Assembly: GCA_963721685.1 (NCBI GenBank)
Contig: CAVRJJ010000005.1
Span: 103,943-167,942 of the forward strand
Direction: 5' to 3'
DNA length: 64,000 nt
Origin: an uncultured bacterium
GTDB taxonomy: Bacteria; Patescibacteriota; Saccharimonadia; UBA4664; SCTI01
Shown: one piece after another, positions 44,618-64,000 of the stretch
Position numbering within the stretch: the first letter of the stretch is position 1
How the letters are laid out: each line of letters starts with the position of its first letter
Notes under the pieces: model-generated
Seen by the model: only the letters and a program-made list of their open reading frames with translations
Databases searched by the model: none
Told to the model about the DNA's origin: nothing
Position numbers and translations under genes: made by a program

Positions 44618-44675
44618 AAGCATAAGCTTAATGGTGCGACACACTGGCTGCGGTTAGAACCTTTTATTATCGTAT
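44618..44675. repeat. att-like repeat R3
   Basis: aagcataagcttaatggtgcgacacactggctgcggttagaaccttttattatcgtatagc. Confidence 0.8.
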
Positions 44676-47036: not shown

Positions 47037-47126
47037 GGAGGGGTGTCCGAGTGGTTGAAGGAACCGGTCTTGAAAACCGGCAGGGTTGCAAGATCCTCGT
47101 GGGTTCGAATCCCACCCCCTCCGCCA
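47037..47126 (+). tRNA. tRNA-Ser (anticodon TGA)
   Basis: GGAGGGG acceptor, loop CTTGAAA, long variable arm, GGTTCGAATCC, CCA. Confidence 0.85.
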
Positions 47127-47242
47127 GCAATTGTGATAGTCTCGATCTTTTTTAGACGCAAGCCGGAAGTAGGCACAGCCGCATGTCAACTCATTGATTC
47201 AGCCCCTGCTCTCCTGTATGCTTTCATACTGTAACCGCCTAT

Positions 47243-47335
47243 GGAGAGGTACCCAAGTGGCTGAAGGGGCGGGTTTGCTAAACCTGTAGGGGGATGTAAG
47301 TCCCCGCGAGAGTTCGAATCTCTCCCTCTCCGCCA
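47243..47335 (+). tRNA. tRNA-Ser (anticodon GCT)
   Basis: GGAGAGG acceptor, loop TTGCTAA, long variable arm, AGTTCGAATCT, CCA. Confidence 0.85.
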
Positions 47336-48127: not shown

Positions 48128-48559
48128 GTGGCACGAAAGAACCCAACCAACGACGAAACCATATTAGAGAATGAGTTTCTAAATGATGAAGAAGCCGGGC
48201 AAAACTGGCTGGAAGAAGAGCAGGAAGTAGAAGGCCAATTAGCGGTAGACGTATTCCAAACGAAAGAAAGCGTGGTTATTAAGGCTCCAATTGCCGGAGT
48301 TGACCCTAAGCAGCTGGAAGTAGCCATTGCTGAAGATGTGGTAACCATCCGCGGTGAGCGGGTTGACGACTCGGTTGTTGAACGCGAGAACTACTATGTG
48401 CAGGAATGCTACTGGGGGGCCTTTAGCCGCTCAATCATTATGCCGGTAAGCGTCAATGCCGATAAGGCTGAAGCGAGCTTAAAGAACGGTGTGCTCAGCA
48501 TCAGCATTCCTAAAGTCATTCAAGATAAGATTAAGAAAATCAAAGTTATCGCCGGCTAA
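48128..48559 (+). CDS. Hsp20/alpha-crystallin small heat-shock protein
   Basis: ACD pattern ...VDVFQTKESVVIKAPIAGV...GAFSRSIIMP...GVLSISIPK. Confidence 0.8.
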   Translation: MARKNPTNDETILENEFLNDEEAGQNWLEEEQEVEGQLAVDVFQTKESVVIKAPIAGVDPKQLEVAIAEDVVTIRGERVDDSVVERENYYVQECYWGAFSRSIIMPVSVNADKAEASLKNGVLSISIPKVIQDKIKKIKVIAG

Positions 48560-48620: not shown

Positions 48621-49046
48621 TTATTCGCCGGCACCGGGAGCAAGCGACGAAGTAACGAAGTTTACTATGGCGTAGGCCAAAATCGCGACGATAATGCCAA
48701 TCACCGAATAGAGAATGGTATCTTTGGCTGAAGAAACATGTTCTTTATTACCCTGGGAAATAACGTAGCGCAAGCCACCGATAATCAACATGATAACGGC
48801 CACGGCACCCACTAGGAAAATGAGAATGTTGGCAATGGTGTGGAAGATACCACCGGCGCCAAACAAGTCGCCGCTGGTGCCTTTTGCTTGGGAACATTGG
48901 GCTCCGGCGTTAATAGGGTTCTCGGCAGAAGCCGGATCACTGCAGGTCTCTCCGGTAGTTTCACCGGCCAAGATCGCTGAGGGCAGAAAGCCGGCGGCAA
49001 CAATGCTGACCTTGAGCACCCTGTCGTTTAGAAGTAGTTTATTCAC
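48621..49046 (-). CDS. T4SS VirB2/TrbC-like pilin paralog P1
   Basis: Signal peptide, Cys-containing variable region, TM1 IANILIFLVGAVAVIMLIIGGLRYVISQG, loop, AKDTILYSVIGIIVAILAYAIVNFV TM2. Confidence 0.6.
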   Translation of the reverse strand: MNKLLLNDRVLKVSIVAAGFLPSAILAGETTGETCSDPASAENPINAGAQCSQAKGTSGDLFGAGGIFHTIANILIFLVGAVAVIMLIIGGLRYVISQGNKEHVSSAKDTILYSVIGIIVAILAYAIVNFVTSSLAPGAGE

Positions 49047-49119
49047 AATTTAATTTCCTTTTAAGTTGTTACGCTTATTTTGGTGCAATATTATCATAGT
49101 TTAATCCAGATGGCTACCA

Positions 49120-49518
49120 TCAAGGCTCGCGGGGCGGCGGGGGAGCCAAAGCTCCGGATACAAAATTAACGATCGCGTAGGCTAAAATCGCGACCACAAT
49201 CCCAATAATGCTATACAGCAGGGTGTCTTTAGCGGACTTAACTTGGGCCGCGTCGCCTTGGGAAATAACGTAACGCAATCCGCCAATGATCAGCATGATC
49301 ACGGCCACGGCACCCACCAGGAAAATAAGCAGGTTCGCGATTTGGGAAAAACTTCCCTGTAGGTCGCCCGAAACGCCAGCGGGTTTTGCATCCCTGGCAC
49401 CTTCGTCAATTTTTGTTACCGCCAGGGCCGATTGCGAGAGGGAAAGGCAAAAAAGCCCGGCCAAGAGTATTTTTTGCTTATACCGATTAATCATTAATCC
49501 TCCTTTATTACCCAACAT
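49120..49518 (-). CDS. T4SS pilin-like paralog P2
   Basis: Same architecture; GGLRYVISQGD...AKDTLLYSIIGIVVAILAYAIVNFV. Confidence 0.6.
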   Translation of the reverse strand: MLGNKGGLMINRYKQKILLAGLFCLSLSQSALAVTKIDEGARDAKPAGVSGDLQGSFSQIANLLIFLVGAVAVIMLIIGGLRYVISQGDAAQVKSAKDTLLYSIIGIVVAILAYAIVNFVSGALAPPPPREP

Positions 49519-49906
49519 TTTGACTCACAAACCGGACAATCGCGTAAGCCAAAACCACGACAATCAAACCGATAACGGCGTAAAGCAGCGTGTCTTTGGC
49601 GGCTTTAATCCTAGCCGCGTCGCCGGTTGAAGTAACGTAGCGAATGCCCGCTAAAATAATAATTATTACGGCAATGGCTCCGGCTACCAGCAGCAAGGTA
49701 TTGGTCACGTCTCCAAGAAAACCATTGTCACCGGTAAGTTCCTTTTGCCCGGTAATGTTGCATTTGCCATTAACAATGGTGCCGCCGGCTCCTTTGCACA
49801 GATTAATTTCTGTGGTTGTTGGAGGTGGAGGCGGCGGAGCTCCTGCAAAGGAAGCCCGCGACACGCCAAGCCAAAGCCCTGCCAGCAATAGCCCAATCCG
49901 TTGCAT
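49508..49906 (-). CDS. T4SS pilin-like paralog P3
   Basis: AGIRYVTSTGD...AKDTLLYAVIGLIVVVLAYAIV; poly-Pro after signal peptide. Confidence 0.6.
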   Translation of the reverse strand: MQRIGLLLAGLWLGVSRASFAGAPPPPPPTTTEINLCKGAGGTIVNGKCNITGQKELTGDNGFLGDVTNTLLLVAGAIAVIIIILAGIRYVTSTGDAARIKAAKDTLLYAVIGLIVVVLAYAIVRFVSQNVG

Positions 49907-50265
49907 TAAGCTATCTTCCCCACTACGAAGCCCACAATGGCCCGCGCCAAAATCACCACGATCAACCCGATAACCGCATAAAGGATGGTGTCTTTAGCGG
50001 CTTGGATGCGTTTGGCATCCCCCGTTGAGGTTATATAACGGATGCCGCCCATGATTAAAATCAGAACCGCGATGGCGCCCACCACAATGAATAGCGTATC
50101 TATTACCACATTGAGCTTTGTTGTAAGGGCGGTATCGCTGCAGGCCGCCGAACCCGCCACCGCTTTCAGCCCCTCGCATTGCTGGCTAGCGGCAAGGGCG
50201 CCTTGCGGGACAATCATAAGAATAAAAAGTCCGAGCCGCGTAAGTTTTTGCCGAATTGCTAACAC
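49906..50265 (-). CDS. T4SS pilin-like paralog P4
   Basis: GGIRYITSTGD...AKDTILYAVIGLIVVIL. Confidence 0.6.
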   Translation of the reverse strand: MLAIRQKLTRLGLFILMIVPQGALAASQQCEGLKAVAGSAACSDTALTTKLNVVIDTLFIVVGAIAVLILIMGGIRYITSTGDAKRIQAAKDTILYAVIGLIVVILARAIVGFVVGKIA

Positions 50266-50266
50266 C

Positions 50267-50677
50267 CTAGCCTCCTGCCGCGTGAATAATAAATGCCGAA
50301 ATCGGTACTGCCAGAAAGGTGACGATCAACCCGATAATAGCATAGAGCAGGGTATTCTTAGCGCTTTCTATACGAGTGGGGTCACCGGTTGAAGTGATAT
50401 AACGCACACCTCCCATAATGACAAAGATGAAGGAAACAATGCCAGCCGCGAACAAGAAAATATTTAAGAACACTTGGAAGTAGGTGAGCCCATCAGGGTC
50501 GCCATTGCTATCAAGCTTTTGGCCATCCGCGTCGCAGCCGCTCATGGCGGGAAGGGCGTCGCAAGCTTTCCCCACAATAGACGATGGCTTGCTGGCTGCC
50601 ACGGCAGGGGAGCTAGCGAAAATAAAACCACTTACCAACACTGTAAGAATAAGCATAAGATGTTTCATTGATTGCAT
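50267..50677 (-). CDS. T4SS pilin-like paralog P5
   Basis: GGVRYITSTGD...AKNTLLYAIIGLIVTFL. Confidence 0.6.
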   Translation of the reverse strand: MQSMKHLMLILTVLVSGFIFASSPAVAASKPSSIVGKACDALPAMSGCDADGQKLDSNGDPDGLTYFQVFLNIFLFAAGIVSFIFVIMGGVRYITSTGDPTRIESAKNTLLYAIIGLIVTFLAVPISAFIIHAAGG

Positions 50678-50710
50678 TGTAACTAAAACACCAGATAGGT
50701 GTCAAAAAGG

Positions 50711-51088
50711 CTAAGGGCTTTTAGCAATAATAAACCCAACAATAAAAGGAGCGAGCACCGACAGCAAAAGGCCAATCGAAGCGTAGATTAGCGTTTGTTT
50801 GGCTCCCTCAACCCGTTGGGCATTGCCGCTGGAAGCCGCGTAGCGTATGCCACCCAGGACCAGGAAAATTACCGACAGCACACCGGCAATCAGCGAAAGG
50901 GTATTAATAGCCCCCTTAGCTATATCGCTTGCCTTTACATTGGGAACATCAAGTTCGCTGGGGTCGTTGGCCAAACACCCGCTGGGGGGGCACTTAGCGT
51001 CGGGATCGGGAGCATCGGCAAAAGCCATTCCTCCCGCCAAAGTCAGGGAAACAAAGCCGCACATAAGCATAATAAAAAAGCGTTTCAT
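50711..51088 (-). CDS. T4SS pilin-like paralog P6
   Basis: GGIRYAASSGN...AKQTLIYASIGLLLSVL. Confidence 0.55.
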   Translation of the reverse strand: MKRFFIMLMCGFVSLTLAGGMAFADAPDPDAKCPPSGCLANDPSELDVPNVKASDIAKGAINTLSLIAGVLSVIFLVLGGIRYAASSGNAQRVEGAKQTLIYASIGLLLSVLAPFIVGFIIAKSP

Positions 51089-51402
51089 TCCAAACCTCTG
51101 GCGAGGAACTCAATTATTAAATAGGCTCCGGCGGATAACATAATTCCCACTACCGCGTGAATAAGTCCGGTTTTAGCCGCGGCGGTTTTGGCCGGTTCGC
51201 CCTGCGAAACAATGTAGAGAATACTGGCATAAATCACATAAATAACCGCCAAAATACCTATCAGCATGAGGAGGATTTCAACAACATTTGCTAAAATAAT
51301 GACGATTTGCTTAATACTGGTGAACTTAAGCTCCCCGGAACCATCCCGAGGGATGCCTTTATAGAGGTTGGGAAAGATATCGGCTAAGAGATGGGTATAC
51401 AT
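51085..51402 (-). CDS. pilin-like paralog P7, lacks signal peptide/Cys region (degenerate)
   Basis: ILYIVSQGEPAKTAAAKTGLIHAVVGIMLSAGAYLII core retained. Confidence 0.4.
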   Translation of the reverse strand: MYTHLLADIFPNLYKGIPRDGSGELKFTSIKQIVIILANVVEILLMLIGILAVIYVIYASILYIVSQGEPAKTAAAKTGLIHAVVGIMLSAGAYLIIEFLARGLE

Positions 51403-52056
51403 TTAAGAACTCGTAAACAGTTTAACATCCGGCGGCAGGATCATTTGAATCAGCCCGAACATAATTACAAACAAGACAAGGCCGGTAATTGCCCCTTTTA
51501 TCCGCTCTTTAGCTTCTTTGGCAATTTCAGGGTCATCGCCGGAAATAACGTACTGCAGCCCGGCAATCACCAGCACCAGCACAAGAATTACCCCAAAGAT
51601 TCCGGTTAAAAATTGCACGCCATATGCCACCAGAGCGAAAATCGGATTTTGGTCGCCGCCGCCGATGCAGCCGCCGGTTCCCAGGGCCTTGCTTACCTTA
51701 ACCCCTTTGCCGGTACAACCGCCGGCGCTGGGGTTGGCCGCCCGGTCGTTGCGACCGCTTTCAGCCCCTTTATCGTACGACTTGTTGCAGGATGTAAGCT
51801 TTGCCCCACGTAAACTGGAGGGCTTACACAGCGCGCTCTTGCTAACACCCCCCTCGGTGTAACCACCTACGAATGCCTTTTTGCACTGCGTTTCACTTAC
51901 CTTGGTTGAAGTGGGGGCGTTGGGGTAACTTCGGCAAAAGTCATTGGCCTGTTCGGTTTTGGAGGCTGGCGCGGCCGAAGCCGTTTCGGTAACCAGAACC
52001 CCGGGAACTCCCAAGGTCATAACCAGCACCATAAGCTGCAGAAGATAACGTTTCAT
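51403..52056 (-). CDS. pilin-like paralog P8 with long Cys/Gly-rich extracellular region
   Basis: Signal peptide, 8 Cys, AGLQYVISGDDPEIAKEAKERIKGAITGLVLFVIMF. Confidence 0.5.
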   Translation of the reverse strand: MKRYLLQLMVLVMTLGVPGVLVTETASAAPASKTEQANDFCRSYPNAPTSTKVSETQCKKAFVGGYTEGGVSKSALCKPSSLRGAKLTSCNKSYDKGAESGRNDRAANPSAGGCTGKGVKVSKALGTGGCIGGGDQNPIFALVAYGVQFLTGIFGVILVLVLVIAGLQYVISGDDPEIAKEAKERIKGAITGLVLFVIMFGLIQMILPPDVKLFTSS

Positions 52057-52108: not shown

Positions 52109-55087
52109 ATGGTGCATTTCGGGGTAAAATCCATTACACTTATGCTTATGAAGAGGAGTAATTCCCGAGTACTCGCGGCGCTCGCCGTCTACCTGTTCGC
52201 GATGGTGGCATCTTTGCTCGTGCCCCTGTTTGCGCAGCCCGCGCAAGCAGCCACGGTAGAGCGCGACTGGGTAATGGTTTTCCCAACCGATAGGGAAGTG
52301 TTAGCTGAAATGAACCGGGAGCTTAGCACGGGCGTTACATCACAGCCTGGTTTTTCCCCGGGTCTGAGCCAAACCTATGTAATGCATAAAAACGACTTAT
52401 GGGATCCGGCCGGGTTTCGTAAGTTTAGCTTTAACCGGGCAGCATCGGACCAAGCAAATTTCCGTTTTTACGCCTTTACCACCTCTTATTACTGTGCCAA
52501 CGATAAAGTAGTTAAATCCAAGCCTTCATCGGGTGACTATTCATTTGTGGAGCTAAAGCTGAACGCGGTTATTAAGGCCGGTTTTGCCAGCACGCCGCCG
52601 CCCACCCACGACACGACCCTTACCGTTAAGCGCTTCACCCACTACAACTCAGCGGGCACCGGGGTGGATTACGAGGTTGGCAACAAAACCAAAACCGGAA
52701 CCCTGCAGCAAGTCGCCCGGCACCGCAGTTGTATGCCCGGGGAAACCGTCTTTTCCCCGACGTCGAGCGCCAGCGACCTATTTGCAATCCGTAATATTAA
52801 AGATCCGGCGGTAAACGATTCCACCTGGGCAAACGCCAAAGACAAGGTACGAGACCAAGTGGAAGCCGACCCGATTACCGGCTCCGACCCTTCGGCGGGT
52901 GGCGGGGGCAGCACCGGCTCAACCGGGGCCGACACCGACCAAGGAGACCAGTGCCCCCGAAAAGCCTTTAACTTTGGCTGGTTGATTTGCCCGGCGCTTG
53001 AACTGGTTAATAATCTCTTTGTGCAAAATTTCCAAAAATTTATGGCTGGCGCTCTCAGCATTGACCCCTTAGACCAAAACGGCGCCGATAAAAATATCTA
53101 CCTGGTATGGAAAAACCTTCGCGACCTCGCGAATGTGCTGTTCCTGCTTATTTTCATGATAATTGTGCTAGCCAACACCCTCTCCATTAATGTGCAGACC
53201 TACACCATTAAAAAGATGATCCCCAAACTGGTAGCGGCGGCGATACTGGTCCAGTTTTCCTTTATCATCAGCGCGGTCATTATAGACGTGGGTAATATCT
53301 TAGGGGATGGCATAGGCGACCTCATTAAGAGCGTGGCAAATACACCGGGAGGCACAAACGATAAAGCCATTGATGGCTTCTTCCAGAACTCCGCCGCCGC
53401 CATAACCGCGGTGGTGGGGGGAGGCTTAATTGTCGGTTCCGCGATTGCCACATCGGGAGCAACGGTTGGTGTGGCGATTGGTGCCATAATACTCGTCGGA
53501 ATAACCGCCTTCTTCGCGTTTTTGTCTATTCTCCTAACCCTCGTGCTGCGGAAGATGATAATCATCATTCTCATTATCGTTTCCCCGCTGGCATTCGCGG
53601 CCATGGTCCTTCCCAGCACCGACAAGTTCTTCAAGATATGGCTGGAAACGTTCATTAAAGTAATTATGATGTACCCGATCATCGTGTTTATGTTTGGGGC
53701 AGCCACCGTTTTGCAAAAAGCCGTGAGTGGCGGCGAAGGCGGCGTGGGCGATGACGCGGGACTGGTAAAAATAATGGCGGCGGCTATGCCAATTGTGGCG
53801 TGCTTTATGGTTCCGAAAGCCTTCGCCTGGGGAGGAAAGTTAATGAGTGGCGGATCTAACGCCATTGACAGTCTGGTGCGCGGTAAGATTGGCGGCAAAG
53901 CCACCGCTAAATTCAAAGCAAGCGACGCCTATACCGTTCCTCGGGCCTTGCGTGAGGGCAACAAGCAAGAAAAAACCGAAGGCCACGCGGGCTTGGACGG
54001 CAAAGATCCCCTCAGCAGGTACCGGCGCTATAAGGCTGGCGTTAAGCTTAGGGGTGACTACCTTGGGGGGAACCGGACCATAGCAAAGGGCGCGGATGGC
54101 AAGTACTGGCATATTGATCCTGATACTGGGAAAAGAACCTTAAATAAATATGGAGATATGTCACGCATGCAGACTAAGCAAAGAAACGCTTATTTGCAAA
54201 AAGGCATTGATGCCAACAAAGAACTTGACCGGAATGAAATACTTGGTCTCTTAGATCCGATGCGACAGGGTGCTCAACACGGAGACTTCAAGGACATTAA
54301 AGAGAATCCGCTGCTTTATGACCAAATGGTGAATGGCATTGGTAGCTATATTGAAAAAGAAGGCAAGCTTCCTTACGCCGAAGCACTCGATGATTTGGCA
54401 GACTTAGGGCATGCCCTCGGTAAAGGTAGTGAAAAGATAGGAATGGACAGGGACTTCCTGATGAGCCGGGACCATAAAGTAGCAGAGGCTCACCCCGTTT
54501 CATCGGAAGGTGCCCAAGTAATGCCGACCGCGCAAAGAGTCGAGCTGAATGACGACGGAACTACTAAAGTTGCCAATAAAGAGTTCCATGGCGTAGAGGG
54601 CTCAGAAGCTAAAAAAGCCACGGTCTTTAAAGAAGGAAGCCATGCACATGAAGATATCAAGAGAAAATTTGGCGCTGAAACATTCATGGGCGATAACCAC
54701 GAACAAGCGGTGGATCAGCTCGCCCACAATTATGTCCAAACTTCTTCAGGAGAACAACAGCGCCTTCTCGACCACCTGCTCGCGGACGATAATAATAAAT
54801 TCGTTCTTCATAACCTAAGAACAACCCCCACCGCCTACCGTAACGTAAAACCCGAAACGGCCGCTGCGGTCGTAAGTCACGCAAACAAGTCCTTGGCTCG
54901 CCTTGGACATCTTAAGTCGACTGGACCTAGTAACGACCAAGAAAGAGCGGAGCTGGCCCTCCTCACCAAAAATGAAAGTAGCTATATAGTTGCCTCCCAT
55001 TTTCAGGACGACCTTACGCAATATAATGACGAAGCCGGTAAGACTGGATCAAAACTCAATCTTGCACTGGAGGATCTAAGGTCATAA
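52109..55087 (+). CDS. VirB6/TrbL-like polytopic T4SS membrane protein with large N-terminal extracytoplasmic domain and C-terminal hydrophilic tail (992 aa)
   Basis: Signal/TM, then >8 TM helices in aa ~330-600; first gene of plus-strand T4SS operon; TAATG coupling to next gene. Confidence 0.5.
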   Translation: MVHFGVKSITLMLMKRSNSRVLAALAVYLFAMVASLLVPLFAQPAQAATVERDWVMVFPTDREVLAEMNRELSTGVTSQPGFSPGLSQTYVMHKNDLWDPAGFRKFSFNRAASDQANFRFYAFTTSYYCANDKVVKSKPSSGDYSFVELKLNAVIKAGFASTPPPTHDTTLTVKRFTHYNSAGTGVDYEVGNKTKTGTLQQVARHRSCMPGETVFSPTSSASDLFAIRNIKDPAVNDSTWANAKDKVRDQVEADPITGSDPSAGGGGSTGSTGADTDQGDQCPRKAFNFGWLICPALELVNNLFVQNFQKFMAGALSIDPLDQNGADKNIYLVWKNLRDLANVLFLLIFMIIVLANTLSINVQTYTIKKMIPKLVAAAILVQFSFIISAVIIDVGNILGDGIGDLIKSVANTPGGTNDKAIDGFFQNSAAAITAVVGGGLIVGSAIATSGATVGVAIGAIILVGITAFFAFLSILLTLVLRKMIIIILIIVSPLAFAAMVLPSTDKFFKIWLETFIKVIMMYPIIVFMFGAATVLQKAVSGGEGGVGDDAGLVKIMAAAMPIVACFMVPKAFAWGGKLMSGGSNAIDSLVRGKIGGKATAKFKASDAYTVPRALREGNKQEKTEGHAGLDGKDPLSRYRRYKAGVKLRGDYLGGNRTIAKGADGKYWHIDPDTGKRTLNKYGDMSRMQTKQRNAYLQKGIDANKELDRNEILGLLDPMRQGAQHGDFKDIKENPLLYDQMVNGIGSYIEKEGKLPYAEALDDLADLGHALGKGSEKIGMDRDFLMSRDHKVAEAHPVSSEGAQVMPTAQRVELNDDGTTKVANKEFHGVEGSEAKKATVFKEGSHAHEDIKRKFGAETFMGDNHEQAVDQLAHNYVQTSSGEQQRLLDHLLADDNNKFVLHNLRTTPTAYRNVKPETAAAVVSHANKSLARLGHLKSTGPSNDQERAELALLTKNESSYIVASHFQDDLTQYNDEAGKTGSKLNLALEDLRS

Positions 55088-55938
55088 TGGGTACCTATAA
55101 AGTTCCTCAAGATGTTGAGTCCGACGATAAGATCTTAGGGCCGTTAAGCATGAAGCAGTTCATCTATGCCATGATCGGCATAGGCTACGGGCTGTTAACC
55201 TTCGCGATTTTAAAATCAGTTATCATCATTTGGATCCTGGTGGGTGTTCCGCCCATGCTCGCGCTACTGGCACTTGGTTTGTACCAGAAAAAAGACCAGT
55301 CAATGGAAACCTACATTGTCAGCATCATCCAATTTATCGTCCGGCCAAAAGTCCGCTATTGGCAAAAGGAGCCAATTGCCGAAGTGTTCCACCTTGAACC
55401 GCCGCCGCCAAAACCGGCCATGGAAATGCGAGATTCGCGTAAAGTCCGCAGCCAGCTGGCGCAGCTAGCCAACGTGGTAGACACCCGCGGCTGGTCGGTT
55501 AAGCATCCCGAGCTGCAAGAGCTCCAGGAGCTGCACGATTTACCAACGGTTGATCTTGGTGGCAGGGTTGGCGGCGGCCAGTTAGGCGGCCCATCCACCG
55601 TGGGAATGGAGCCGCCGGAGGTTAGCGACGAGGATGACATGCTAAGCTCCACTACCACCAAAGCCGGGGAGTTGGACGCGCTGATTGCCAATAGCGTTAA
55701 AAGCCTACGCGCCGAGGTAATGGAGGGCATGGCAGCCGGCCATGTTCCAGGGGACGCTCCTGCCCTCTCAAGCACAAGCGGGATGACAGTGGCCCCATCT
55801 GGTGATATACTCAAATTAGCCGCGGAGGGTGGGGATTTGTCAGTTGCCCAAATTGCTGCCCAAGCCCACCGCTTTAATCAACCAACCGCCGAAGGGCAGC
55901 AAGTGAGCGTGCAGAATGCCAACAGCCAACCAGCCTAA
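55087..55938 (+). CDS. VirB3-like small membrane protein (2 TM near N-terminus) with disordered C-terminal tail
   Basis: FIYAMIGIGYGLLTFAILKSVIIIWILVGVPPMLALLALGLY; position immediately before VirB4. Confidence 0.45.
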   Translation: MGTYKVPQDVESDDKILGPLSMKQFIYAMIGIGYGLLTFAILKSVIIIWILVGVPPMLALLALGLYQKKDQSMETYIVSIIQFIVRPKVRYWQKEPIAEVFHLEPPPPKPAMEMRDSRKVRSQLAQLANVVDTRGWSVKHPELQELQELHDLPTVDLGGRVGGGQLGGPSTVGMEPPEVSDEDDMLSSTTTKAGELDALIANSVKSLRAEVMEGMAAGHVPGDAPALSSTSGMTVAPSGDILKLAAEGGDLSVAQIAAQAHRFNQPTAEGQQVSVQNANSQPA

Positions 55939-56659
55939 TCCCGCCCCCAAGCCCAGCACCCAAGATACACTGCTGATTTCCGAAATCCGCGACGGGGTAG
56001 TGGTGATGCGCGACGGTAGCTTACGCAATGTGCTTATGGCCAGCGCGGTAAACTTTGACCTTATGAGCGCGGGCGAGCGTGAAGGGGTGGAGTACGCCTA
56101 CCAAAGCTTCTTAAACTCGCTGCACTTCCCTATTCAAATTGTGGTTAAGTCGCAGCGGCTGGAGCTTGAAAGCTATATTGCCAATCTCCAGCAACTTCAA
56201 ACCGAGCAAGACAACCCGATGCTCGCTAATTTAATGGATGACTACATTGCCAATATCTTCAACCTGATTGACCAAGTTAATATCATGGATAAGCAGTTTT
56301 ATGTGGTAGTGCCGTTTTATCCGCCCGTGGTGGATAAAATTGCCAAAAAGAATATTGTCTCGAGCATCGCGGGATCATTTAAAAAAACCACTGTTACCAC
56401 CGTTAATGAAACCGACTTTAACGCTTATAAAGAAGAGCTGGCCCAGCGCGTGGGGTTGGTTTCCAGCGGTTTGGGGCAAATGGGGGTTCGTAATATCCCC
56501 CTCAACACCCAGGAATTGATTGATTTGTATTACTCCGCCTACAACCCGGACGCGGCTGAAAACCAAAAGCTGGTTGAGGCCGCCCAATTGCAAACCGCGG
56601 CGGTTACCAAGGGTGAGGGTGAGGCGCCGCGCCACTTGGCCGGCGGAGGGCCGTACTAA
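55916..56659 (+). CDS. probable VirB4 N-terminal domain encoded as separate ORF (247 aa), TAATG-coupled to ATPase ORF
   Basis: Length plus 621 aa = canonical VirB4 size; no TM; overlaps upstream gene by 23 nt in +1 frame. Confidence 0.4.
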   Translation: MPTANQPNPAPKPSTQDTLLISEIRDGVVVMRDGSLRNVLMASAVNFDLMSAGEREGVEYAYQSFLNSLHFPIQIVVKSQRLELESYIANLQQLQTEQDNPMLANLMDDYIANIFNLIDQVNIMDKQFYVVVPFYPPVVDKIAKKNIVSSIAGSFKKTTVTTVNETDFNAYKEELAQRVGLVSSGLGQMGVRNIPLNTQELIDLYYSAYNPDAAENQKLVEAAQLQTAAVTKGEGEAPRHLAGGGPY

Positions 56660-58524
56660 TGGGGGTGTTTGGCGGCAAAAAACCAGTTAATGACCCCATT
56701 GCGCTAGCCGAAGCCCAGAGGGCCAAAGAACAGCAGGAAGCCGAGGCCATTTACCGGCAGGGCATTGTGAGCCTGCGCGATCTTATAGCGCCGCCCAGTT
56801 TGCAGGTAACGGCCGACCACATCCAAATCGGTACCCGCTTCGCCCGGACATTATATGTGTACGGCTATCCCCGCCAGATTTTTACCGGATGGTTAAGCCC
56901 CCTGGTAAACCTTGATGAGGTCATGGACCTAAGCATGTTCATTATGCCGGTCGAAAGCCAAATTGTATTAAACAACCTGAGACGCAAAGTAGGCCAACTG
57001 GAGGCCAGCTACAGTATTAACCAGGAAAAAGGCCGGGTGCGCGATCCCGGCTTAGAAGCGGCCATTATGGACGCCGAGGAGCTGCGCGATAAGCTGCAAG
57101 TTGGTGAGGAGCGGTTTTTCCGCTTTGGTTTATATGCCACCATCTACGCCGACAGCCTGGAAGAGCTCAAGGACGTTCAGCGTAAGATTGAGGGTATTTT
57201 TGGGCAATCGCTGGTTTATACCAAAGCCGCGACCATGCAGATGGAGCCGGGCTTTAATTCTACTCTGCCGCTCGGCACCGACCAGCTTCAAGTAGCGCGC
57301 AACATGGACACCAATGCCCTTTCTACCAGCTTTCCGTTCACCTCAGCCGAACTCAGCCGCAACGAAGGCGTGCTCTACGGTATTAACCGTCACAACAATG
57401 GGCTGGTGCTATTCGACCGATTCAGCCTGGAAAACGCCAACATGGTGGTATTTGCAAAATCCGGAGCCGGTAAAAGCTTCGCAATTAAACTTGAGGCCAT
57501 CCGGAGCTTAATGCTGGGCACTGAAATTCTGGTTATCGACCCCGAAGATGAGTACCGGGCGCTATGCGAAGCCGTTGGAGGCAGCTACTTGCGCCTAAGC
57601 CTAGCCTCCGACAATCGGCTTAATCCATTCGACCTTCCTAGAGTCCTCGACAGTGAAGACGCCGACAATGCCCTGCGGGCCAACATTATCACACTGCACG
57701 GCTTATTGCGCCTGATGATGGGAGGCCAAGCCGCGCCGCTCGGTCCGGCCGAAGACGCCGACTTGGATGTGGCACTCATTAATACCTACGCTAAAGCCGG
57801 CATTACCAACGACCCCCTTACCCACGGTGCCACCCCGCCCACCATGAACGACCTGCATAAGACTTTGTCGGAAATGAGCGGCAACGGTCCCGCGCTGGCC
57901 CAGCGCCTGCGCCAGTACACTACCGGAACATTTGCCGGCATCTTCTCGGAACAATCAAACGTTGACCTCTACAACAAGTTTGTGGTGTTCAACATCCGTG
58001 ACCTGGAAGACGAGCTGCGCCCGGTTGGGATGTACATTGTTCTTAACTACATTTGGAACAAAGTAAAAAGTGACAAGAAGAAGCGCATCCTAATTGTGGA
58101 TGAAGCCTGGCAGCTCATGAAGTTTGAAGATAGCGCTAACTTTATGTTCAGCATTGCCAAGCGAGCCCGAAAATATTTCTTGGGCCTGACCACCATCACC
58201 CAGGATGTCGACGACTTTCTAAGCTCGCGGATGGGCCGCGCGATTGTATCCAACTCATCACTGCAGCTGCTGCTGAAGCAAGCCCCCAGCTCAGTGGATA
58301 TTATTGGCGAAACCTTTAAGCTAACCTCTGAAGAAAAAACCCGGCTTACCACGTTCCCGGTTGGAGAAGGCCTGTTCTTTGCCGGCCTTAACCACGTGGT
58401 GATGCGTATCCTAGCCTCCGAGACCGAAACTCGGCTGATTACCACCAACCCCCAGGCGGTAGCCAAGCAGGAGGCAGCCACACAGGCATACAGAGAGGCC
58501 CAGCAGGAAATAGCGGGGGGCTAA
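56659..58524 (+). CDS. virB4: VirB4/TraC/CagE-family T4SS ATPase (C-terminal ATPase domain)
   Basis: Walker A VVFAKSGAGKSFAIK, Walker B KKKRILIVDEAWQLM. Confidence 0.8.
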   Translation: MGVFGGKKPVNDPIALAEAQRAKEQQEAEAIYRQGIVSLRDLIAPPSLQVTADHIQIGTRFARTLYVYGYPRQIFTGWLSPLVNLDEVMDLSMFIMPVESQIVLNNLRRKVGQLEASYSINQEKGRVRDPGLEAAIMDAEELRDKLQVGEERFFRFGLYATIYADSLEELKDVQRKIEGIFGQSLVYTKAATMQMEPGFNSTLPLGTDQLQVARNMDTNALSTSFPFTSAELSRNEGVLYGINRHNNGLVLFDRFSLENANMVVFAKSGAGKSFAIKLEAIRSLMLGTEILVIDPEDEYRALCEAVGGSYLRLSLASDNRLNPFDLPRVLDSEDADNALRANIITLHGLLRLMMGGQAAPLGPAEDADLDVALINTYAKAGITNDPLTHGATPPTMNDLHKTLSEMSGNGPALAQRLRQYTTGTFAGIFSEQSNVDLYNKFVVFNIRDLEDELRPVGMYIVLNYIWNKVKSDKKKRILIVDEAWQLMKFEDSANFMFSIAKRARKYFLGLTTITQDVDDFLSSRMGRAIVSNSSLQLLLKQAPSSVDIIGETFKLTSEEKTRLTTFPVGEGLFFAGLNHVVMRILASETETRLITTNPQAVAKQEAATQAYREAQQEIAGG

Positions 58525-58527
58525 GCA

Positions 58528-61500
58528 ATGCAGCCAACGCTTTCCCCACAAGATGATGAGGAGCTCGATAACCCGGTTGACGACCATGACGCACTGGGGG
58601 AGGAGGACAACGCACCCTATAGCGATCTGCCGCGCAGCCACCAGCCGGCATCTTCACGCTTCCAGGATGATGCCCAGCGCGGTTTAGATGATATCCCGGT
58701 ACAAGACCCGGCCCACCGCAGCAACCGCCCGGGCGATGGAACAGCCAGGGCCAGTGATGGATCGCCCCTGCCGGGAGGACCCGCCAGCGAGGTCTCATCC
58801 ACGAAAAAAGGCGGGGTGAGTGACGAAGATGGCCCGGAGGGTGAAGAGGGCGAAAAACCAAAGCCCAAAACATCTGCCTACAAGAAATATAAAAGATACA
58901 AGCTGGCCAAAAATACCGCTAAGGCCATGCTGGGCAGCAGGCGGGCGATTTTCGGACTAATCTTCAGCGGCAGCATCATTGGTTTACTGATTGGCGGATT
59001 TTTTCTCCTAGCCCCCTTCAAGCTGATGTTTATGAAAGAAAACATCGATCAAGTCCGGATGGCGCGGATGTATTACATCTTGGATAGGCGCAGCGACCGG
59101 TTCCTGGTAACCATGCTAAAAGCCGAGATAGCGGGCGAAGACGCTGGCGGCCAAAACCGCTACTTTATTGCAAAGGGCTGGGTTGGATCAGAAAACCCCT
59201 TCACCCAGTGGTATAAAGACATGAGAACCGACAAGTTTTTTGAGCAAATGGAGCGCACCCAGGGCGTCCGCTTTATTCGCGAAAAACCGGCGGGTGGCGG
59301 CAAAGACCGCCTGGTAAAACTAAATGTTCGGGGCGAAATAATCGACTTTAGCGCCATAACCAACGATGGCGGCATGGTTTTTGAAGACACCGAACGGTTT
59401 GAGCGGCTGGTAGACACGCGCTACGCGAGCAACAAGGAAGCTCGCCGGGCCTGGAACGGAGCGGTTAAAGACGCCACCAAACGCCACCAGATCATCATGC
59501 GTTATACCATGCGTAAGTGGGGAAGGGAGCGTCTGGGTATTACCAAGTGGCGCTTTTTCGAAAACACCCGAGAGAAAGCCGACGACAAGGTGAGGGCGAC
59601 ATGGAATAAATCCGTCCGTAAGGCCGCGATCAGCGGCAAGGCCATCCGCTGCTTATTTGATGTGGGGCCGTGCCCCGACAGCGACAGCCTAAACGACAGC
59701 GACAACGCGACCGGCGCCCCCGACCCGGAATTTGAACAGGCCGCCAACGAAGCCGATGCCGAGGCGGAACAGGATAGCACGCCCGAAAATCCCAATGACC
59801 CCAGCAAATCGACCCGGCTGTTCGCGAAAAAGATTGTTTTAAAACTCATTCCGTTTGTAAACATTGCGGAGATAATTGACCTCGCGATGCATGTTGACAA
59901 GATGTTTGAAGAAAAGAAGCTGTCTAAAATGGTTGCCGCCTATCGCGCCGCCGAGTACGCGAGCGCCTATTTTACCTTCTCAACCCTTACCGACAACCTT
60001 AAGGCCGGCAAGGACGTGAGCGGCCCGGAGGCTGGCGCGGCGCTAGCGATGTTTAACGGTATGGAAAATAGCGACGGCTACCTGCAAGTTACCAAAAATT
60101 CATCGAGCACCGCCTTCCTTCCCAGCCTGAATAAGGCCTATGCCGCGGATTCTAACCCTATTGATCGGGTTGATGATTCATTCCGCGTTAATGGGTCATC
60201 AAACGCCTCAAAATTTGAAGCCCTTTACGAAAAAACGGTTGGCAAAATTCTTCGCCCCATCCTCAGGGAATGTGACGGACTTATCAATTTCTGTACTATC
60301 GCCAGCAAAATATCCGGCGTTATCGGATCGGTTATTGAAACGATTCTTAAGCCGCTGGTCGCGGTGGCCGCTCCGGTGGGAGGGTTCCTTTTTAGCGCGG
60401 TAGCCGGACAAAGCCCCCAAGAGGCGATGCAGGGAGTAATGGCCGATGCCACGGTTTTCATGGCGGGCTCATCAAAGTGCTCTACAAAATCAGTGAAAGA
60501 ACAGGAAAAAACCGGCAGGGGCGGTGGCCGCCTATTCAATTGTGTTGATGGGGGAGCATCGGTAATAACCGAGGCGGTAACGCAAAATATGGGTGGCGGG
60601 CCCGCCACCACCGTGACCATTAACGAGCTCAACGCCAACATCGCCCAGGCAAAGAGGGAGGAAGATACCGGTAGAAGCCTGTGGGACAAGATCGCTTCCT
60701 TAGAACGAGGGGATTCTTTGGTAGCCAAGCTCATTATGCGCGGCCCGTCATCCGGCAAAGAGCTGGCGGCAAACTTCCAGGGTATGCTTGCCTACATCAA
60801 CCCGGTCAACCTTTTAGATGCCGGCGGTGCCAGCATTGTGGCTCTTTCCAGCCAGCCTTCTTACGCTGATATATTAGATGACAATATGTACGGGGTGGCC
60901 CGGTACGCCGTAAGCGAAGAGGACCTTGCCAAAGAGCCTTATGGCAGCAAGAGCAAAGCCGAATGCGACAAGGAAATGGCCGAATACAAGACCGCCATGG
61001 AGGCCGGCGGCAGCCCCCCAACCAGCATGTGTACGCTGGACTCCGAGGTTGCCAACTCTCTTGCTTGCCTTAATAGTGAAGACCCCGATTGCGCCAGGGT
61101 AGGCGAGCAGGCCATGACACCCTGTCTTGCAGAGCAATCTACCGTAACCAGCCTAACCGGCCAAGCGCCCGTGGATGCCCCTGGCCAAAACCGAAAAATC
61201 GTCCTTATTGGTGATTCACTACTAACGGGTGCCGATGAAACCGGCGACCTCGGGGGCCGGCTTGAGGCCAAAGGTTTCAACGGCGTGGATATCGTAATTG
61301 AGGCATCAAACGGACGCTCAATAACCGGCGCTGGTACCAGCGGGAGCCGGCTTTCCGGGGAAGAGGCGGTTGAGCAGCTGGGCGAGCCTGGCGGGGCAAT
61401 CGACGGCGCCTCCGTGGTTGTGGTGGAGTTAGGCACAAACACCAGCGGAACCCCAGCCCAATTTAAGGCCCAGGTGCGCAAACTTGTTGAATCGATAAAA

Positions 61501-62268
61501 AACGCGGACAAAGAAAGTGATGCCCTAATTTATTGGGTAAGTATTGTGTCCAAAAAAGATGCCAGGTACGCCGCTTATAACGAGGCGATCGAAGAAGTCG
61601 CGGAAAGCGAAAATATCTCGGTAATTACCCCCAAGGACATTAGCCTGAACGCCGATAAAATCCATCCGACACCGGAAGGATATAAAAAGTACGCCCAAGC
61701 CATTGCCGGCGCGGTTGACGCCGACGGTTTAGGTGACGCGGCCAAGCCCGACTGTGGCAACCCGGATGACGCGGTTATTGCCGGCGACGCCCAAGAGATA
61801 GCGGGAAAGCTAAAAGAACTAATGGGCGGAAGCTCGCCGAAGGTGCTTGGCGACAGCCGTTACCTTAAGCAAATTACCAATATTGCTGACGGCAAAGCTG
61901 GCTGCAATGTTGACGAGGCCATCCTTAAGTTGATATATGGCATGACTACTAAAGGCTACCAAGTGAGCATTTCCTCCTTAAACCGCTTTTGCACAAAGGT
62001 GCTGACCGCCTCTGGCGAGGGAAGCAACCACTATAGAAATGGCGGCGGCCACGCGGTGGACTTTCAGGCGGTAAACGGGCAGGCGGTAAATGGCGGGAGC
62101 GCCTTATCGATCAAGTTTATTAAGGATATGGAAGATTTTATGCTAGACGGGACTGAGCTGGGGCAAGTAAACTGCCGCTCGGAACAATTAAGCTTCAGCA
62201 AAAAAGTAAGCCAGGTAAACGACTCTTGCAACCACATTCATGTCGGCTTTGAGCGAGGAGCAGAATAG
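58528..62268 (+). CDS. 1246-aa membrane-anchored multidomain cell-wall hydrolase: acidic disordered N-terminus, one TM, SGNH/GDSL esterase domain (~61190-61700), C-terminal M15-like zinc-peptidase-like region
   Basis: SGNH blocks read directly: IVLIGDSLLTG, ASNGRS, ELGTNT, DKIHPTPEGY; C-terminus SNHYRNGGGHAVDF...NHIHVGF resembles M15/VanY His-Asp-His pattern (weak). Confidence 0.6.
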   Translation: MQPTLSPQDDEELDNPVDDHDALGEEDNAPYSDLPRSHQPASSRFQDDAQRGLDDIPVQDPAHRSNRPGDGTARASDGSPLPGGPASEVSSTKKGGVSDEDGPEGEEGEKPKPKTSAYKKYKRYKLAKNTAKAMLGSRRAIFGLIFSGSIIGLLIGGFFLLAPFKLMFMKENIDQVRMARMYYILDRRSDRFLVTMLKAEIAGEDAGGQNRYFIAKGWVGSENPFTQWYKDMRTDKFFEQMERTQGVRFIREKPAGGGKDRLVKLNVRGEIIDFSAITNDGGMVFEDTERFERLVDTRYASNKEARRAWNGAVKDATKRHQIIMRYTMRKWGRERLGITKWRFFENTREKADDKVRATWNKSVRKAAISGKAIRCLFDVGPCPDSDSLNDSDNATGAPDPEFEQAANEADAEAEQDSTPENPNDPSKSTRLFAKKIVLKLIPFVNIAEIIDLAMHVDKMFEEKKLSKMVAAYRAAEYASAYFTFSTLTDNLKAGKDVSGPEAGAALAMFNGMENSDGYLQVTKNSSSTAFLPSLNKAYAADSNPIDRVDDSFRVNGSSNASKFEALYEKTVGKILRPILRECDGLINFCTIASKISGVIGSVIETILKPLVAVAAPVGGFLFSAVAGQSPQEAMQGVMADATVFMAGSSKCSTKSVKEQEKTGRGGGRLFNCVDGGASVITEAVTQNMGGGPATTVTINELNANIAQAKREEDTGRSLWDKIASLERGDSLVAKLIMRGPSSGKELAANFQGMLAYINPVNLLDAGGASIVALSSQPSYADILDDNMYGVARYAVSEEDLAKEPYGSKSKAECDKEMAEYKTAMEAGGSPPTSMCTLDSEVANSLACLNSEDPDCARVGEQAMTPCLAEQSTVTSLTGQAPVDAPGQNRKIVLIGDSLLTGADETGDLGGRLEAKGFNGVDIVIEASNGRSITGAGTSGSRLSGEEAVEQLGEPGGAIDGASVVVVELGTNTSGTPAQFKAQVRKLVESIKNADKESDALIYWVSIVSKKDARYAAYNEAIEEVAESENISVITPKDISLNADKIHPTPEGYKKYAQAIAGAVDADGLGDAAKPDCGNPDDAVIAGDAQEIAGKLKELMGGSSPKVLGDSRYLKQITNIADGKAGCNVDEAILKLIYGMTTKGYQVSISSLNRFCTKVLTASGEGSNHYRNGGGHAVDFQAVNGQAVNGGSALSIKFIKDMEDFMLDGTELGQVNCRSEQLSFSKKVSQVNDSCNHIHVGFERGAE

Positions 62269-62282
62269 TGGGTGGGCTTAAG

Positions 62283-64000
62283 ATGGTGGCGCCCCCCACG
62301 AGGGTCCACGGCTGGCGCTACGGCCTGTGCTGGGCGCTCATTATAGCGCTTAGCATGCTGGTGCCGGCGCAAGCGCTGGCCATCAGCAAGGCCGACAAAG
62401 AAGCCGTGCTGTATGACACCCCGTACTACGACCCCACCCAATGCCAGGAAGCTCCGGCGCAAGACCTAACCACCGACCCCAAAGGCTCAAGCTCCCAAGA
62501 GAAAGCCTTTGATTTTTACAAGAAACAGGGCGTAAGCGCTGAAGCGGCGGCCGGGATTGTTGGCAACCTTATTGTAGAGTCGGGCGCCAAGCTCAACACT
62601 AGGGCAACCAACGGTAGCCACTGGGGCATAGTGCAGTGGGATGCCGGCCGCTATGCCAAGATGCAAAAATACGCCAAAGACAACAACATGAGCGAATTCA
62701 ACCTGATCGCGCAACTGGAATATTCCTGGATAGAGGCAAAACAAAGGAATGTTCCCGAAGCCATGCGTTCGGCCGACACCCCTGAAAAAGCCGCCGTGGT
62801 GTGGGAAAATCTAGTTGAAAACTGCGGCTGCACCATAGACAAGCGCAAAACCGAAGCCGCGAAGGTGTTTAAAAAATATGGTCGATCTGCCGCGCCTGAC
62901 GACGATGCCGACACCGGTTCCAGCGTTGACCCCATTAACCCACGCTTAAGCTTGGCGGAGGTAGCTAATAAACACAGCCTACATTCAGCAATTATCAAAG
63001 AACTTGATGGCGACACCATAGGAAAATATAAAGCCACTACCGCGCCCAATGCCCCGGGCAGCACAATGAAGCTCATAATTGTAGATGTTGTTTTACAAGA
63101 CGAGCTGAGCCTAAATAAAACCCTTCGCGTATCAAGCGAGTTGCATTACGGCGGGGACAACGACCTGGGCGGCAACACCATATCGGTTCGTGACGCGATC
63201 AAAGCCACTCTTGGAGCCTCCAGTAATGTCGGGGCAAATGTTTTAATAAAAGCGCTGGGTGGCGTAGACGCGTTTAGCACAAAGGCCCATAAATACGGCT
63301 ACACAAAAACCACTATGGAAGAGTATTATCAGCCCGGTCCTGACAACAATACCAGCACGATTCGCGACCAGGCCGAAGCTATGAGCCGGATTTTTGACGA
63401 AACCGGCGAGGGCTACAAAATTGCGCAGAAGGCCTTGCAGGACGCCGCCAACGGAGAGGGCAACCACTTTAATGTTGAGGGAGTGATTGCCACTAAAGGG
63501 GCGTGGACCGACGAGGTGGCGGGCAATGTTGGTAAGTTTAAAATCAGCAACAAGGATTATATAATTGGCTTGTACTACGAGGGTAATTCATCCTCGGAAG
63601 CGGCCAAAAAGGCTATCCGTGAGGGGTCGGCCGACTTGGTCAAGCTAATTAAGACAGGGATACCCTCGAGCGCGGACAGCATAATCGCCAGCTGCTGCCC
63701 GAACGTAGCCACCGACGGCACTCCGGGAAACTCCAACGGTTCGGATGCCGGGGTGTGGAGCAGCGGCCTTAGCGCTCCCTTTATTGTGGAACAATACGCG
63801 ATTGAGGTGCTGAAGAACTTAGCAAAAAAGAAGGGGGTTGAGGAATCGAAGGCTGTTACCAAAGAGCACGTGCTCGCGCTGGTTACCTGGGTGCTTCTAG
63901 AGGGCGGTGATATCGCAAACGACGGCCGCTTTAACCTGTACAATACCGGCAAATCAGCGCCCGAGCTTAACGACGGCGCGCACACCGCTAACGGGCTTGG
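62283..64000 (+). CDS. secreted protein, partial (no stop in window): phage-tail-lysozyme-like domain plus class-A beta-lactamase/PBP-like serine hydrolase domain (SxxK, SxN, KTG)
   Basis: Own translation from ATG 62283: signal MVAPPTRVHGWRYGLCWALIIALSMLVPAQALA; AAAGIVGNLIVESG motif; STMK (63067-63078), SSN, KTG motifs; absent from ORF track. Confidence 0.6.
   Translation, partial: MVAPPTRVHGWRYGLCWALIIALSMLVPAQALAISKADKEAVLYDTPYYDPTQCQEAPAQDLTTDPKGSSSQEKAFDFYKKQGVSAEAAAGIVGNLIVESGAKLNTRATNGSHWGIVQWDAGRYAKMQKYAKDNNMSEFNLIAQLEYSWIEAKQRNVPEAMRSADTPEKAAVVWENLVENCGCTIDKRKTEAAKVFKKYGRSAAPDDDADTGSSVDPINPRLSLAEVANKHSLHSAIIKELDGDTIGKYKATTAPNAPGSTMKLIIVDVVLQDELSLNKTLRVSSELHYGGDNDLGGNTISVRDAIKATLGASSNVGANVLIKALGGVDAFSTKAHKYGYTKTTMEEYYQPGPDNNTSTIRDQAEAMSRIFDETGEGYKIAQKALQDAANGEGNHFNVEGVIATKGAWTDEVAGNVGKFKISNKDYIIGLYYEGNSSSEAAKKAIREGSADLVKLIKTGIPSSADSIIASCCPNVATDGTPGNSNGSDAGVWSSGLSAPFIVEQYAIEVLKNLAKKKGVEESKAVTKEHVLALVTWVLLEGGDIANDGRFNLYNTGKSAPELNDGAHTANGL

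Follow-up and report, generated by a model that had tools for sequence, protein, structure and literature searches.

A type IV secretion system (T4SS) of the Saccharibacteria (TM7) has been described in Southlakia epibionticum ML1, where it is encoded by the gene cluster SEML1_0006-0019 (Wang et al. 2023, Cell; PMC10633639, Tables S1 and S2). In this cluster SEML1_0006 codes for a protein with two lysozyme-like domains and a cysteine proteinase, and SEML1_0007 for a protein of 1113 aa with a C-terminal Hedgehog/DD-peptidase domain (aa 951-1105). VirB4 (SEML1_0008), a TrsD-like protein (SEML1_0009), PrgI (SEML1_0010), two VirB6-like proteins (SEML1_0011 and 0013) and six pilins (SEML1_0014-0019) complete the set, next to genes for Hsp20 (SEML1_0020), ComF (SEML1_0021) and tRNA-Ser (SEML1_0022). 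In transposon sequencing (Tn-seq) all T4SS genes but the NTF2-like SEML1_0012 proved essential for growth as an epibiont on the host, and the authors remarked on the unusual pilins and on the missing relaxase and coupling protein (PMC10633639). Here we describe the corresponding locus in a stretch of 64,000 nt from an uncultured SCTI01 bacterium of the Saccharimonadia (GCA_963721685.1, CAVRJJ010000005.1 positions 103,943-167,942), which is called the window below. The locus is very probably the conserved chromosomal T4SS of Saccharibacteria, the counterpart of SEML1_0006-0019, and would serve epibiotic interaction rather than conjugation. Essentiality and the non-conjugative role are carried over from Southlakia by analogy.

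The locus spans position 48621 to beyond 64000 and consists of a minus-strand pilin array and a divergent plus-strand operon. Gene-for-gene synteny was found with SEML1_0006-0022, and an initial annotation of the window had rightly proposed a comparison with Saccharibacteria T4SS loci. Like the Southlakia cluster, the locus has no adjacent relaxase or coupling protein. Differences are found in gene number and, above all, in the domain content of the wall hydrolases. There are eight pilin genes instead of six and one VirB6 gene instead of two, and the NTF2-like gene (VirB8 fold) that lies between the VirB6 copies in Southlakia has no equivalent here. The first hydrolase gene of the window, g5, encodes an SGNH esterase domain that SEML1_0007 does not have, and in the second, g6, a penicillin-binding protein (PBP)/beta-lactamase-like domain replaces the second lysozyme-like/glucosaminidase domain of SEML1_0006. 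A survey of T4SSs in Patescibacteria (Quinonero-Coronel et al. 2025, Microb Genom; PMC12102498) described a VirB4 clade related to MPF-FATA, with TrsD as the most frequent companion and with PrgI and VirB6, along with 441 arrays with 2-11 VirB2 genes each (identity 25% on average and 54% at most), frequent proximity to dnaA, and non-VirB1 peptidases and lysozymes downstream of virB4. The window locus shares the FATA-related VirB4, TrsD and PrgI, VirB6, the VirB2 array, the chromosomal location and the non-VirB1 glycosidases and peptidases after virB4. A 2025 review calls the system a distinct newcomer to the T4SS superfamily (PMC12857230). As the system has been published (PMC10633639, PMC12102498, PMC12857230), we regard the locus as one more example of a system already known.

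The plus strand from 52109 to 64000 carries six open reading frames (ORFs), g1 to g6, with almost no intergenic space. TAATG overlaps join g1 to g2 at 55085 and g3 to g4 at 56657, g2 and g3 overlap by 23 nt, the gap between g4 and g5 is 3 nt, and the GTG start of g6 overlaps the stop codon of g5 (TAGTG). The ORF coordinates, the tight coupling and both TAATG overlaps agree with the initial annotation, which had read the genes as a complete-looking operon of a monoderm-type T4SS starting at 52109. The core genes were borne out by profile searches, as detailed below, but the eight divergent pilin genes, the trait that most sets this type of T4SS apart, had been overlooked, and the locus starts at 48621.

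The gene g4 (56659-58524) encodes a 621-aa protein that, judged by its profile matches, is clearly VirB4. It matched the NCBIfam model NF045971 of the CD1110-family VirB4 with E=5.9e-112 (375 bits, cutoff 325) and the TraG P-loop family PF19044 with E=8e-29, and in PDB it matched 4AG5, a solved VirB4 ATPase C-terminal domain, with E=8.7e-47. The Walker A motif KSGAGKS occupies aa 267-273 (nt 57457-57477) and the Walker B motif ILIVDEAW aa 477-484 (nt 58087-58110), as had been read from the translation at the outset. This VirB4 falls in the Firmicute CD1110/FATA-type family, and together with the TrsC/PrgI-TrsD-TrsE-hydrolase gene order this agrees with the monoderm type first proposed. A weak match to the DUF87/HerA central domain (27 bits) and the 'Phage tail lysozyme' match of g6 (PF18013) could be explained by a phage-derived module made up of a tail lysozyme and a packaging or HerA-like ATPase. 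The initial annotation had itself pointed to a failing VirB4 profile match or a phage packaging or other ATPase context as findings that would speak against its reading. The VirB4-specific model scored 375 bits as compared to 27 for DUF87, g4 is flanked by genes for VirB3, VirB6, TrsD and eight VirB2 pilins, and scans of the window showed no capsid, portal, terminase or tail genes. The far higher VirB4-specific scores and the lack of phage structural genes led us to reject a phage origin, the probability of which we consider negligible.

The small gene preceding virB4, g3 (55916-56659, 247 aa), codes for a TrsD-like protein, annotated at first as a VirB4 N-domain ORF. It matched the TrsD/TraD model NF041427 (E=2.4e-8) and has no transmembrane (TM) segment; a search against PDB gave no meaningful match. 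On the 894-position VirB4_plasma model g3 covers positions 135-233 and g4 positions 279-893, and the two proteins are also colinear on the SCO6880 model. By this colinearity g3 and g4 make up a split VirB4 with g3 as the detached N-terminal domain, as in TrsD/TrsE of pGO1-type systems. The product of g2 (55087-55938, 283 aa) is PrgI/VirB3-like, in agreement with its first reading: PF12666 (PrgI) was matched with E=5.7e-14 (52.9 bits, cutoff 27), and a two-TM hairpin (aa 24-63) is followed by a long C-terminal tail.

The first gene of the operon, g1 (52109-55087), encodes a polytopic membrane protein of 992 aa. Its matches to TrbL/VirB6 (PF04610) were E=1.6e-3 for the full length and 1.7e-4 for the TM region, both under the Pfam cutoff. 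The family gave better support. TrbL was matched by the TM regions of 8 out of 27 homologues (best E=1.6e-5) and TrbL_3 by one, and the top PDB match of the family profile was TrwI, the VirB6 of plasmid R388 (E=2.6e-3). Hydropathy analysis indicated a signal or anchor segment (aa 21-39) and an ectodomain of about 300 aa (ca. aa 40-335), then six TM helices between aa 340 and 568, and at the C-terminus a hydrophilic domain of about 420 aa (aa 569-992); the domains outside the TM region gave nothing in Pfam or PDB searches. Remote homology and topology thus suggest that g1 is VirB6-like with an 'extended VirB6' layout. As the initial annotation had it, the protein resembles VirB6, with an assignment that is weak for the single protein and supported by the family. 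In two related loci, L004 and L011, single giant VirB6-like ORFs of 2133 and 2221 aa were found, while others have two VirB6 genes; the giant ORFs may be fusions of two paralogues. Taken together, g1 to g4 encode the cytoplasmic-membrane core of a Gram-positive (MPF-FATA-like) T4SS.

Divergent from the operon, eight tandem genes for VirB2-like pilins occupy 48621-52056 on the minus strand. Starting next to g1 they are pil1 (51403-52056), pil2 (51085-51402), pil3 (50711-51088), pil4 (50267-50677), pil5 (49906-50265), pil6 (49508-49906), pil7 (49120-49518) and pil8 (48621-49046). All eight matched the T4SS_pilin family PF18895 above cutoff (E 1e-6 to 7e-13), and four of them matched TrbC/VirB2 as well. 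Each has two C-terminal TM helices that flank a conserved loop, GG(I/L)RY..S.GD...AK(D/N)T(L/I).Y, and six begin with a hydrophobic segment that resembles a signal. Identity between paralogues ranges from 24 to 69% and is highest between neighbours, as expected from tandem duplication. In local alignments pil7 and pil8 share 69% and pil5 and pil6 61% identity; these pairs exceed the maximum of 54% reported in the survey, and in other respects the locus is typical. Sigma70-like sites with 11 out of 12 matching positions were found on the minus strand in the gaps before pil1 (52093->52064, TTGACA-18-TAAAAT) and before pil4 (50705->50676, TTGACA-18-TACAAT). The promoter scan of the region gave five matches where 4.3 were expected, which is not above chance, and the two sites are to be taken as leads. 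The site before pil1 lies ca. 15 bp short of the annotated ATG of g1 at 52109, and because of this proximity g1 may start downstream (MKRSN..., around 52148).

The operon continues with two genes for multidomain peptidoglycan hydrolases. The membrane-anchored product of g5 (58528-62268, 1246 aa) starts with a charged low-complexity segment (aa 1-143), followed by a TM helix (aa 144-162) and a conserved helical domain of about 700 aa (ca. aa 163-860, nt 59014-61107). This domain is conserved in the homologues P0002-P0013, with 37-48% identity in P0002-P0009. An AlphaFold2 model of aa 130-860 built from 13 sequences was mostly helical with a pLDDT of 58, and a Foldseek search with this model against PDB gave no significant match (best E=1.7). 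The next domain is an SGNH esterase (aa 891-1062, nt 61198-61713), which matched GDSL_2 (PF13472) with E=6.9e-12 (46.7 bits, cutoff 32.9) and has intact sequence blocks: GDSLL at aa 895, GTN at aa 969 and DKIH (DxxH) at aa 1043. The C-terminal region (ca. aa 1088-1246, nt 61789-62265) resembles LAS/M15 zinc peptidases. It contains the zinc-ligand motifs SNH..GGGHAVD (aa 1166-1178) and DSCNHIH (aa 1232-1238), and the residues of S-x-H, G-x-A-x-D and H-x-H (S, H, G, A, D, H, H) are invariant across 10 homologues. The g5 C-terminus had no Pfam match at E<=1, and hence none to a curated M15, M74 or VanY model, but homologues in the same position do match such models (M74 in P0007; VanY in 9 of 60 proteins encoded after VirB4 in relatives). 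The family profile of this region weakly matched hedgehog N-domains (E about 0.016). With moderate confidence we predict a zinc peptidase of the LAS type (Hedgehog/DD-peptidase fold). In the initial description of g5 as SGNH-esterase/M15-like, the first part holds above cutoff, and the second corresponds to this LAS-type domain.

The second hydrolase gene, g6, begins at 62268 (GTG) or 62283 (ATG) and runs past 64000, so that the window holds a part of its ORF; the full length of 868 aa was taken from P0014, an exact match in the database. The protein is predicted to be secreted or anchored, with a signal anchor at aa 21-39. A lysozyme-like domain (aa 77-204, nt 62496-62879) matched Phage_lysozyme2 (PF18013) above cutoff with E=1.9e-23, and a PBP/class-A-beta-lactamase-like domain (aa 262-434, nt 63051-63569) matched Beta-lactamase2 (PF13354) with E=4.3e-14 (52.8 bits, cutoff 22). 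The lysozyme/beta-lactamase-like character noted at first for the truncated ORF was thus confirmed. A weak similarity to the DD-carboxypeptidase 4P0M (E=0.0075) was also seen. In the PBP-like domain the SxxK (STMK) and SxN (SSN) motifs are present, while the third box reads KGA and not K(T/S)G. An unassigned central region and an NlpC/P60-like cysteine peptidase (aa 749-832) lie beyond position 64000, and the C-terminus matched Amidase_5 (E=2e-3) and NlpC/P60 (E=1.2e-2) under cutoff. Neither g5 nor g6 matched SLT (PF01464) or CHAP in the Pfam scans. The hydrolases had been called atypical for VirB1-type transglycosylases; this is correct inasmuch as no VirB1/SLT domain occurs, but within the clade they are the norm, SEML1_0006 and SEML1_0007 having the same architecture.

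To compare the locus with its relatives we used genome stretches found with the g4 VirB4 in a set of species-representative genomes. The best 80 of at least 596 were taken; almost all are metagenome-assembled genomes labelled Saccharibacteria or Saccharimonadia, with 64-90% VirB4 identity. The recurring order is ComF (minus strand), Hsp20 (plus strand), a pilin array (minus strand), one or two VirB6 genes, VirB3, TrsD and VirB4. A PrgI/VirB3 gene lies directly upstream of TrsD-VirB4 in 70 of the 80 loci, and a TrsD-like gene immediately precedes virB4 in 72. VirB4 is followed by a protein of ca. 850-1150 aa, one of ca. 400-830 aa, one to three variable genes that gave no informative Pfam matches, and then recF and dnaN. 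The operon had been said to end in two hydrolases; both are present, and relatives usually add the variable genes before recF-dnaN. A reading of the conserved downstream minus-strand genes of the relatives as FemAB and Mur ligase was wrong, as scans of two of them gave recF and dnaN. The hydrolases are often followed by two conserved genes of about 210 aa (L008 16850-18161; the c10 and c13 genes, in 12-16 loci), one of them with a weak Phage_tube_C match; their probable counterparts are the essential SEML1_0004 and SEML1_0005, which encode PEGA/prealbumin-like exported proteins. In another relative, L015, the VirB3, VirB6, pilin and hydrolase genes are inverted relative to TrsD-VirB4, which shows that the cluster can be rearranged without being lost.

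Divergence among the relatives is distributed unevenly over the locus. The median identity to the window was 68% for VirB4, 46% for TrsD, 34% for VirB3 and 31% for the VirB6 TM core, and for g5 and g6 it was about 26-28% or no match was obtained. Sixty proteins encoded after VirB4 in 36 relatives represented 15 different Pfam families, nearly all of them wall hydrolases (lysozyme-2, M23, VanY, SLT, GH3, Amidase_3, CHAP, NlpC/P60, GDSL and others). An SGNH domain as in g5 occurred in two of the 60, and a PBP-like domain as in g6 in a single one, which belongs to the closest relative, L001. In L001 VirB4 is 90% identical to that of the window, and the counterpart of g5 (8455-11355) is 24% identical over 200 aa. 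The layout of this protein is kept, with a TM helix, a long domain and the C-terminal S-x-H/G-x-A-x-D/H-x-H motifs, and its sequence suggests either replacement or extreme divergence at the g5 position. The comparison indicates that the hydrolase pair evolves fast and by modules.

The surroundings of the locus bear on the possibility that it is the conjugative T4SS of an integrative and conjugative element (ICE) or plasmid, with the relaxase and type IV coupling protein (T4CP) encoded outside the window. The initial annotation had left the choice between a conjugative system and an apparatus for effector delivery or host attachment. The VirB4 family matched by g4 was defined from conjugative elements (CD1110/CTn2-type), the plasmids pGO1/pSK41 show the same TrsC-TrsD-TrsE-hydrolase order (PMC12102498), and the sequence inspected is limited to 64 kb. 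However, housekeeping genes are found throughout the window, including rpoD, dnaG, and genes for ATP synthase, GroEL, a Mur ligase, TsaD and an aminoacyl-tRNA synthetase, together with RecJ-like, holA, fpg, polA-type exonuclease and paired FemAB genes, and the GC content is uniform along it, with no anomaly. The window is core chromosome of a Saccharibacterium. Searches for relaxase, T4CP and mobile-element genes covered the window and the flanks of the related loci. A Pfam scan of 26 window ORFs of at least 250 aa, which left out the ORF at 18398-19186 (262 aa), found no relaxase, VirD4/T4CP or integrase family and no other mobile-element gene, in agreement with the earlier statement that the window holds no relaxase or VirD4; four of the scanned ORFs had no Pfam family at all (26316-27692, 27932-29455, 40110-41015 and 41210-42283). 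In the relatives there was no T4CP or relaxase among the genes next to the locus, within 10 kb of virB4, and no conserved gene of T4CP size up to 10 kb downstream. The locus keeps its position by ComF/Hsp20, and in relatives by recF/dnaN, across dozens of species, which argues for vertical inheritance and not for a mobile element. Furthermore, the survey found relaxases in 103 Patescibacteria genomes as compared to 2,474 virB4 genes, and in Southlakia the T4CP homologue is non-essential whereas the T4SS is essential (PMC12102498). Given its housekeeping surroundings and constant position, we rejected an ICE as the source of the locus, and conjugation as such appears very improbable. The core-chromosome setting, the position conserved across species and the lack of a nearby relaxase or T4CP favour a non-conjugative role in host interaction.

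The flank on the other side of the pilin array consists of a ComF-like gene (47344-47949, minus strand; Pfam Pribosyltran and a double zinc ribbon), an Hsp20 gene (48128-48559, plus strand; HSP20 E=1e-16) and, ahead of the ComF-like gene, two tRNA-Ser genes (47037-47335). Since Saccharibacteria cannot make nucleotides (PMC10633639), a T4SS for DNA uptake or release, like Helicobacter ComB or archaeal Ced, could feed such an auxotroph with host DNA, with the ComF-like gene as part of the system. In line with this, the ComF-like gene adjoins the pilin array in the window and likewise in 14 related loci, and g4 gave weak matches to the DNA-import ATPases CedB (E=2.7e-11) and CedD (E=5e-4). The Ced matches are confined to the P-loop region, though, and are far weaker than those to VirB4, and in Southlakia the T4SS genes are essential but SEML1_0021, the ComF homologue, is not. 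Deletion of comEC abolished competence and left viability unaffected (PMC12857230), so ComEC-dependent DNA uptake does not account for the T4SS being essential. We consider a DNA uptake system improbable. The ComF-Hsp20-tRNA-Ser flank is taken as synteny context.

If the locus is a host-interaction T4SS, as we prefer, the VirB4/TrsD ATPase, anchored by VirB3 and VirB6, would power assembly of a VirB2-type pilus or conduit made of one or several of the pilin paralogues. The products of g5 and g6 would cut peptidoglycan so that this structure can cross the wall, which could be that of the own cell and plausibly also that of the actinobacterial host. In this scheme the SGNH domain would act as a de-O-acetylase, glycan strands would be cleaved by the lysozyme domain, and stem peptides would be the target of the LAS, PBP-like and NlpC/P60-like domains. 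The assembled apparatus might then pass proteins or other cargo between the epibiont and its host, in either direction.

On the wall that is cut, it is quite possible, if somewhat doubtful, that g5 and g6 serve as ordinary VirB1-type helpers, which open the own wall and have no role on the host wall. Their place right behind VirB4 is the one occupied by PrgK, TraG and TrsG, the N-terminal TM anchor of g5 is like that of PrgK and TraG, and the muramidase and cysteine peptidase of g6 parallel the SLT and CHAP domains of monoderm VirB1 proteins. The extreme domain turnover, with 15 Pfam families in 60 proteins, speaks against such a restricted role, as does a divergence of g5 and g6 far above that of the rest of the machine, which would be unexpected if the conserved own wall were the sole substrate; both arguments are indirect. 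The fast turnover seen in the hydrolase modules and also in the pilins may be a sign that both are turned towards the host. A bolder proposal is that g5 and g6 are host-directed wall-breaching enzymes, that shuffled modules and pilin paralogues set the host range, and that the ~700-aa domain of g5 is a new structural component replacing VirB8 or a stalk and carrying the enzymes to the contact site. We regard this combination as rather unlikely. Own-wall and host-wall roles of g5 and g6 are not mutually exclusive.

Several observations weigh against the preferred explanation. With 64 kb inspected, a T4CP or relaxase may be encoded farther off, and VirD4 homologues do occur elsewhere in many Patescibacteria genomes (PMC12102498). 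The VirB6 assignment of g1 is built on sub-threshold matches, and no VirB8-like protein was recognized, either by a Pfam match or as a separate small gene in the cluster. The ~700-aa domain of g5 has no recognizable fold and no Pfam or PDB sequence match, and the degenerate KTG box of g6 means that the PBP-like domain may bind and not cleave.

Other features of the window were recorded along with the locus. The genes dnaA, dnaN and recF do not occur in it. The cumulative GC skew has its minimum at ca. 36-38 kb, and gene orientation flips at ca. 36.45 kb (34464-37536), where two minus-strand FemAB-like genes meet plus-strand TsaD and aminoacyl-tRNA synthetase genes; this may be a replication landmark. 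The minus-strand ORFs 26316-27692 (459 aa) and 27932-29455 (508 aa), both without a Pfam family at E<=1e-4, lie where the GC content of the window is highest (0.58 at 28-30 kb). ARAGORN predicted a tRNA-Arg(gcg) at 21624-21695 on the minus strand, for which the Rfam tRNA model stayed under its gathering score; for a second tRNA-Arg(gcg) at 46248-46324 ARAGORN and Rfam agree. The ORF at 44290-44694 (minus strand) gave a sub-threshold match to a HicB-like antitoxin (E=1.7e-5, 25.4 bits, cutoff 27), and the region around it (42-46 kb) contains otherwise no recognizable genes.

The T4SS of Saccharibacteria is the first T4SS shown to be essential for growth of its bearer and is a Gram-positive-type system with VirB2 pilins. 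The window locus adds a clean example of the conserved architecture and no new kind of system, and in addition two uncommon module combinations, SGNH with LAS and lysozyme with PBP-like and NlpC/P60-like domains. It also adds a measured contrast, in that the hydrolase pair and the pilins change faster than the ATPase core, which is a lead for host-range studies. With the Gram-positive MPF-FATA systems (TrsC-TrsD-TrsE-TrsF-TrsG of pGO1/pSK41, PrgH-PrgI-PrgJ-PrgK-PrgL of pCF10, and pIP501) the locus shares the VirB6/VirB3/(TrsD)/VirB4/hydrolase order, the split VirB4 N-domain (TrsD), a multidomain hydrolase with a TM anchor behind VirB4 and the lack of components of an outer-membrane core. It differs from them in its core chromosomal position and in hydrolase modules of the lysozyme-2, LAS, SGNH, PBP-like and NlpC/P60-like types instead of SLT and CHAP, and no relaxase, T4CP, oriT, PrgB-type adhesin or recognizable VirB8-like protein was found at the locus. 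The VirB2-like pilin array is a further difference, as ordinary Gram-positive systems have none and make contact via surface adhesins. Tandem amplified and diversified pilin genes are known from the effector T4SSs of Bartonella and Anaplasma, and VirB2 amplification has been proposed to vary the exposed surface or to widen host-cell recognition (PMC12102498). Those systems are diderm MPF-T machines with VirB7, VirB9, VirB10 and known effectors, whereas the window locus is of the monoderm type.

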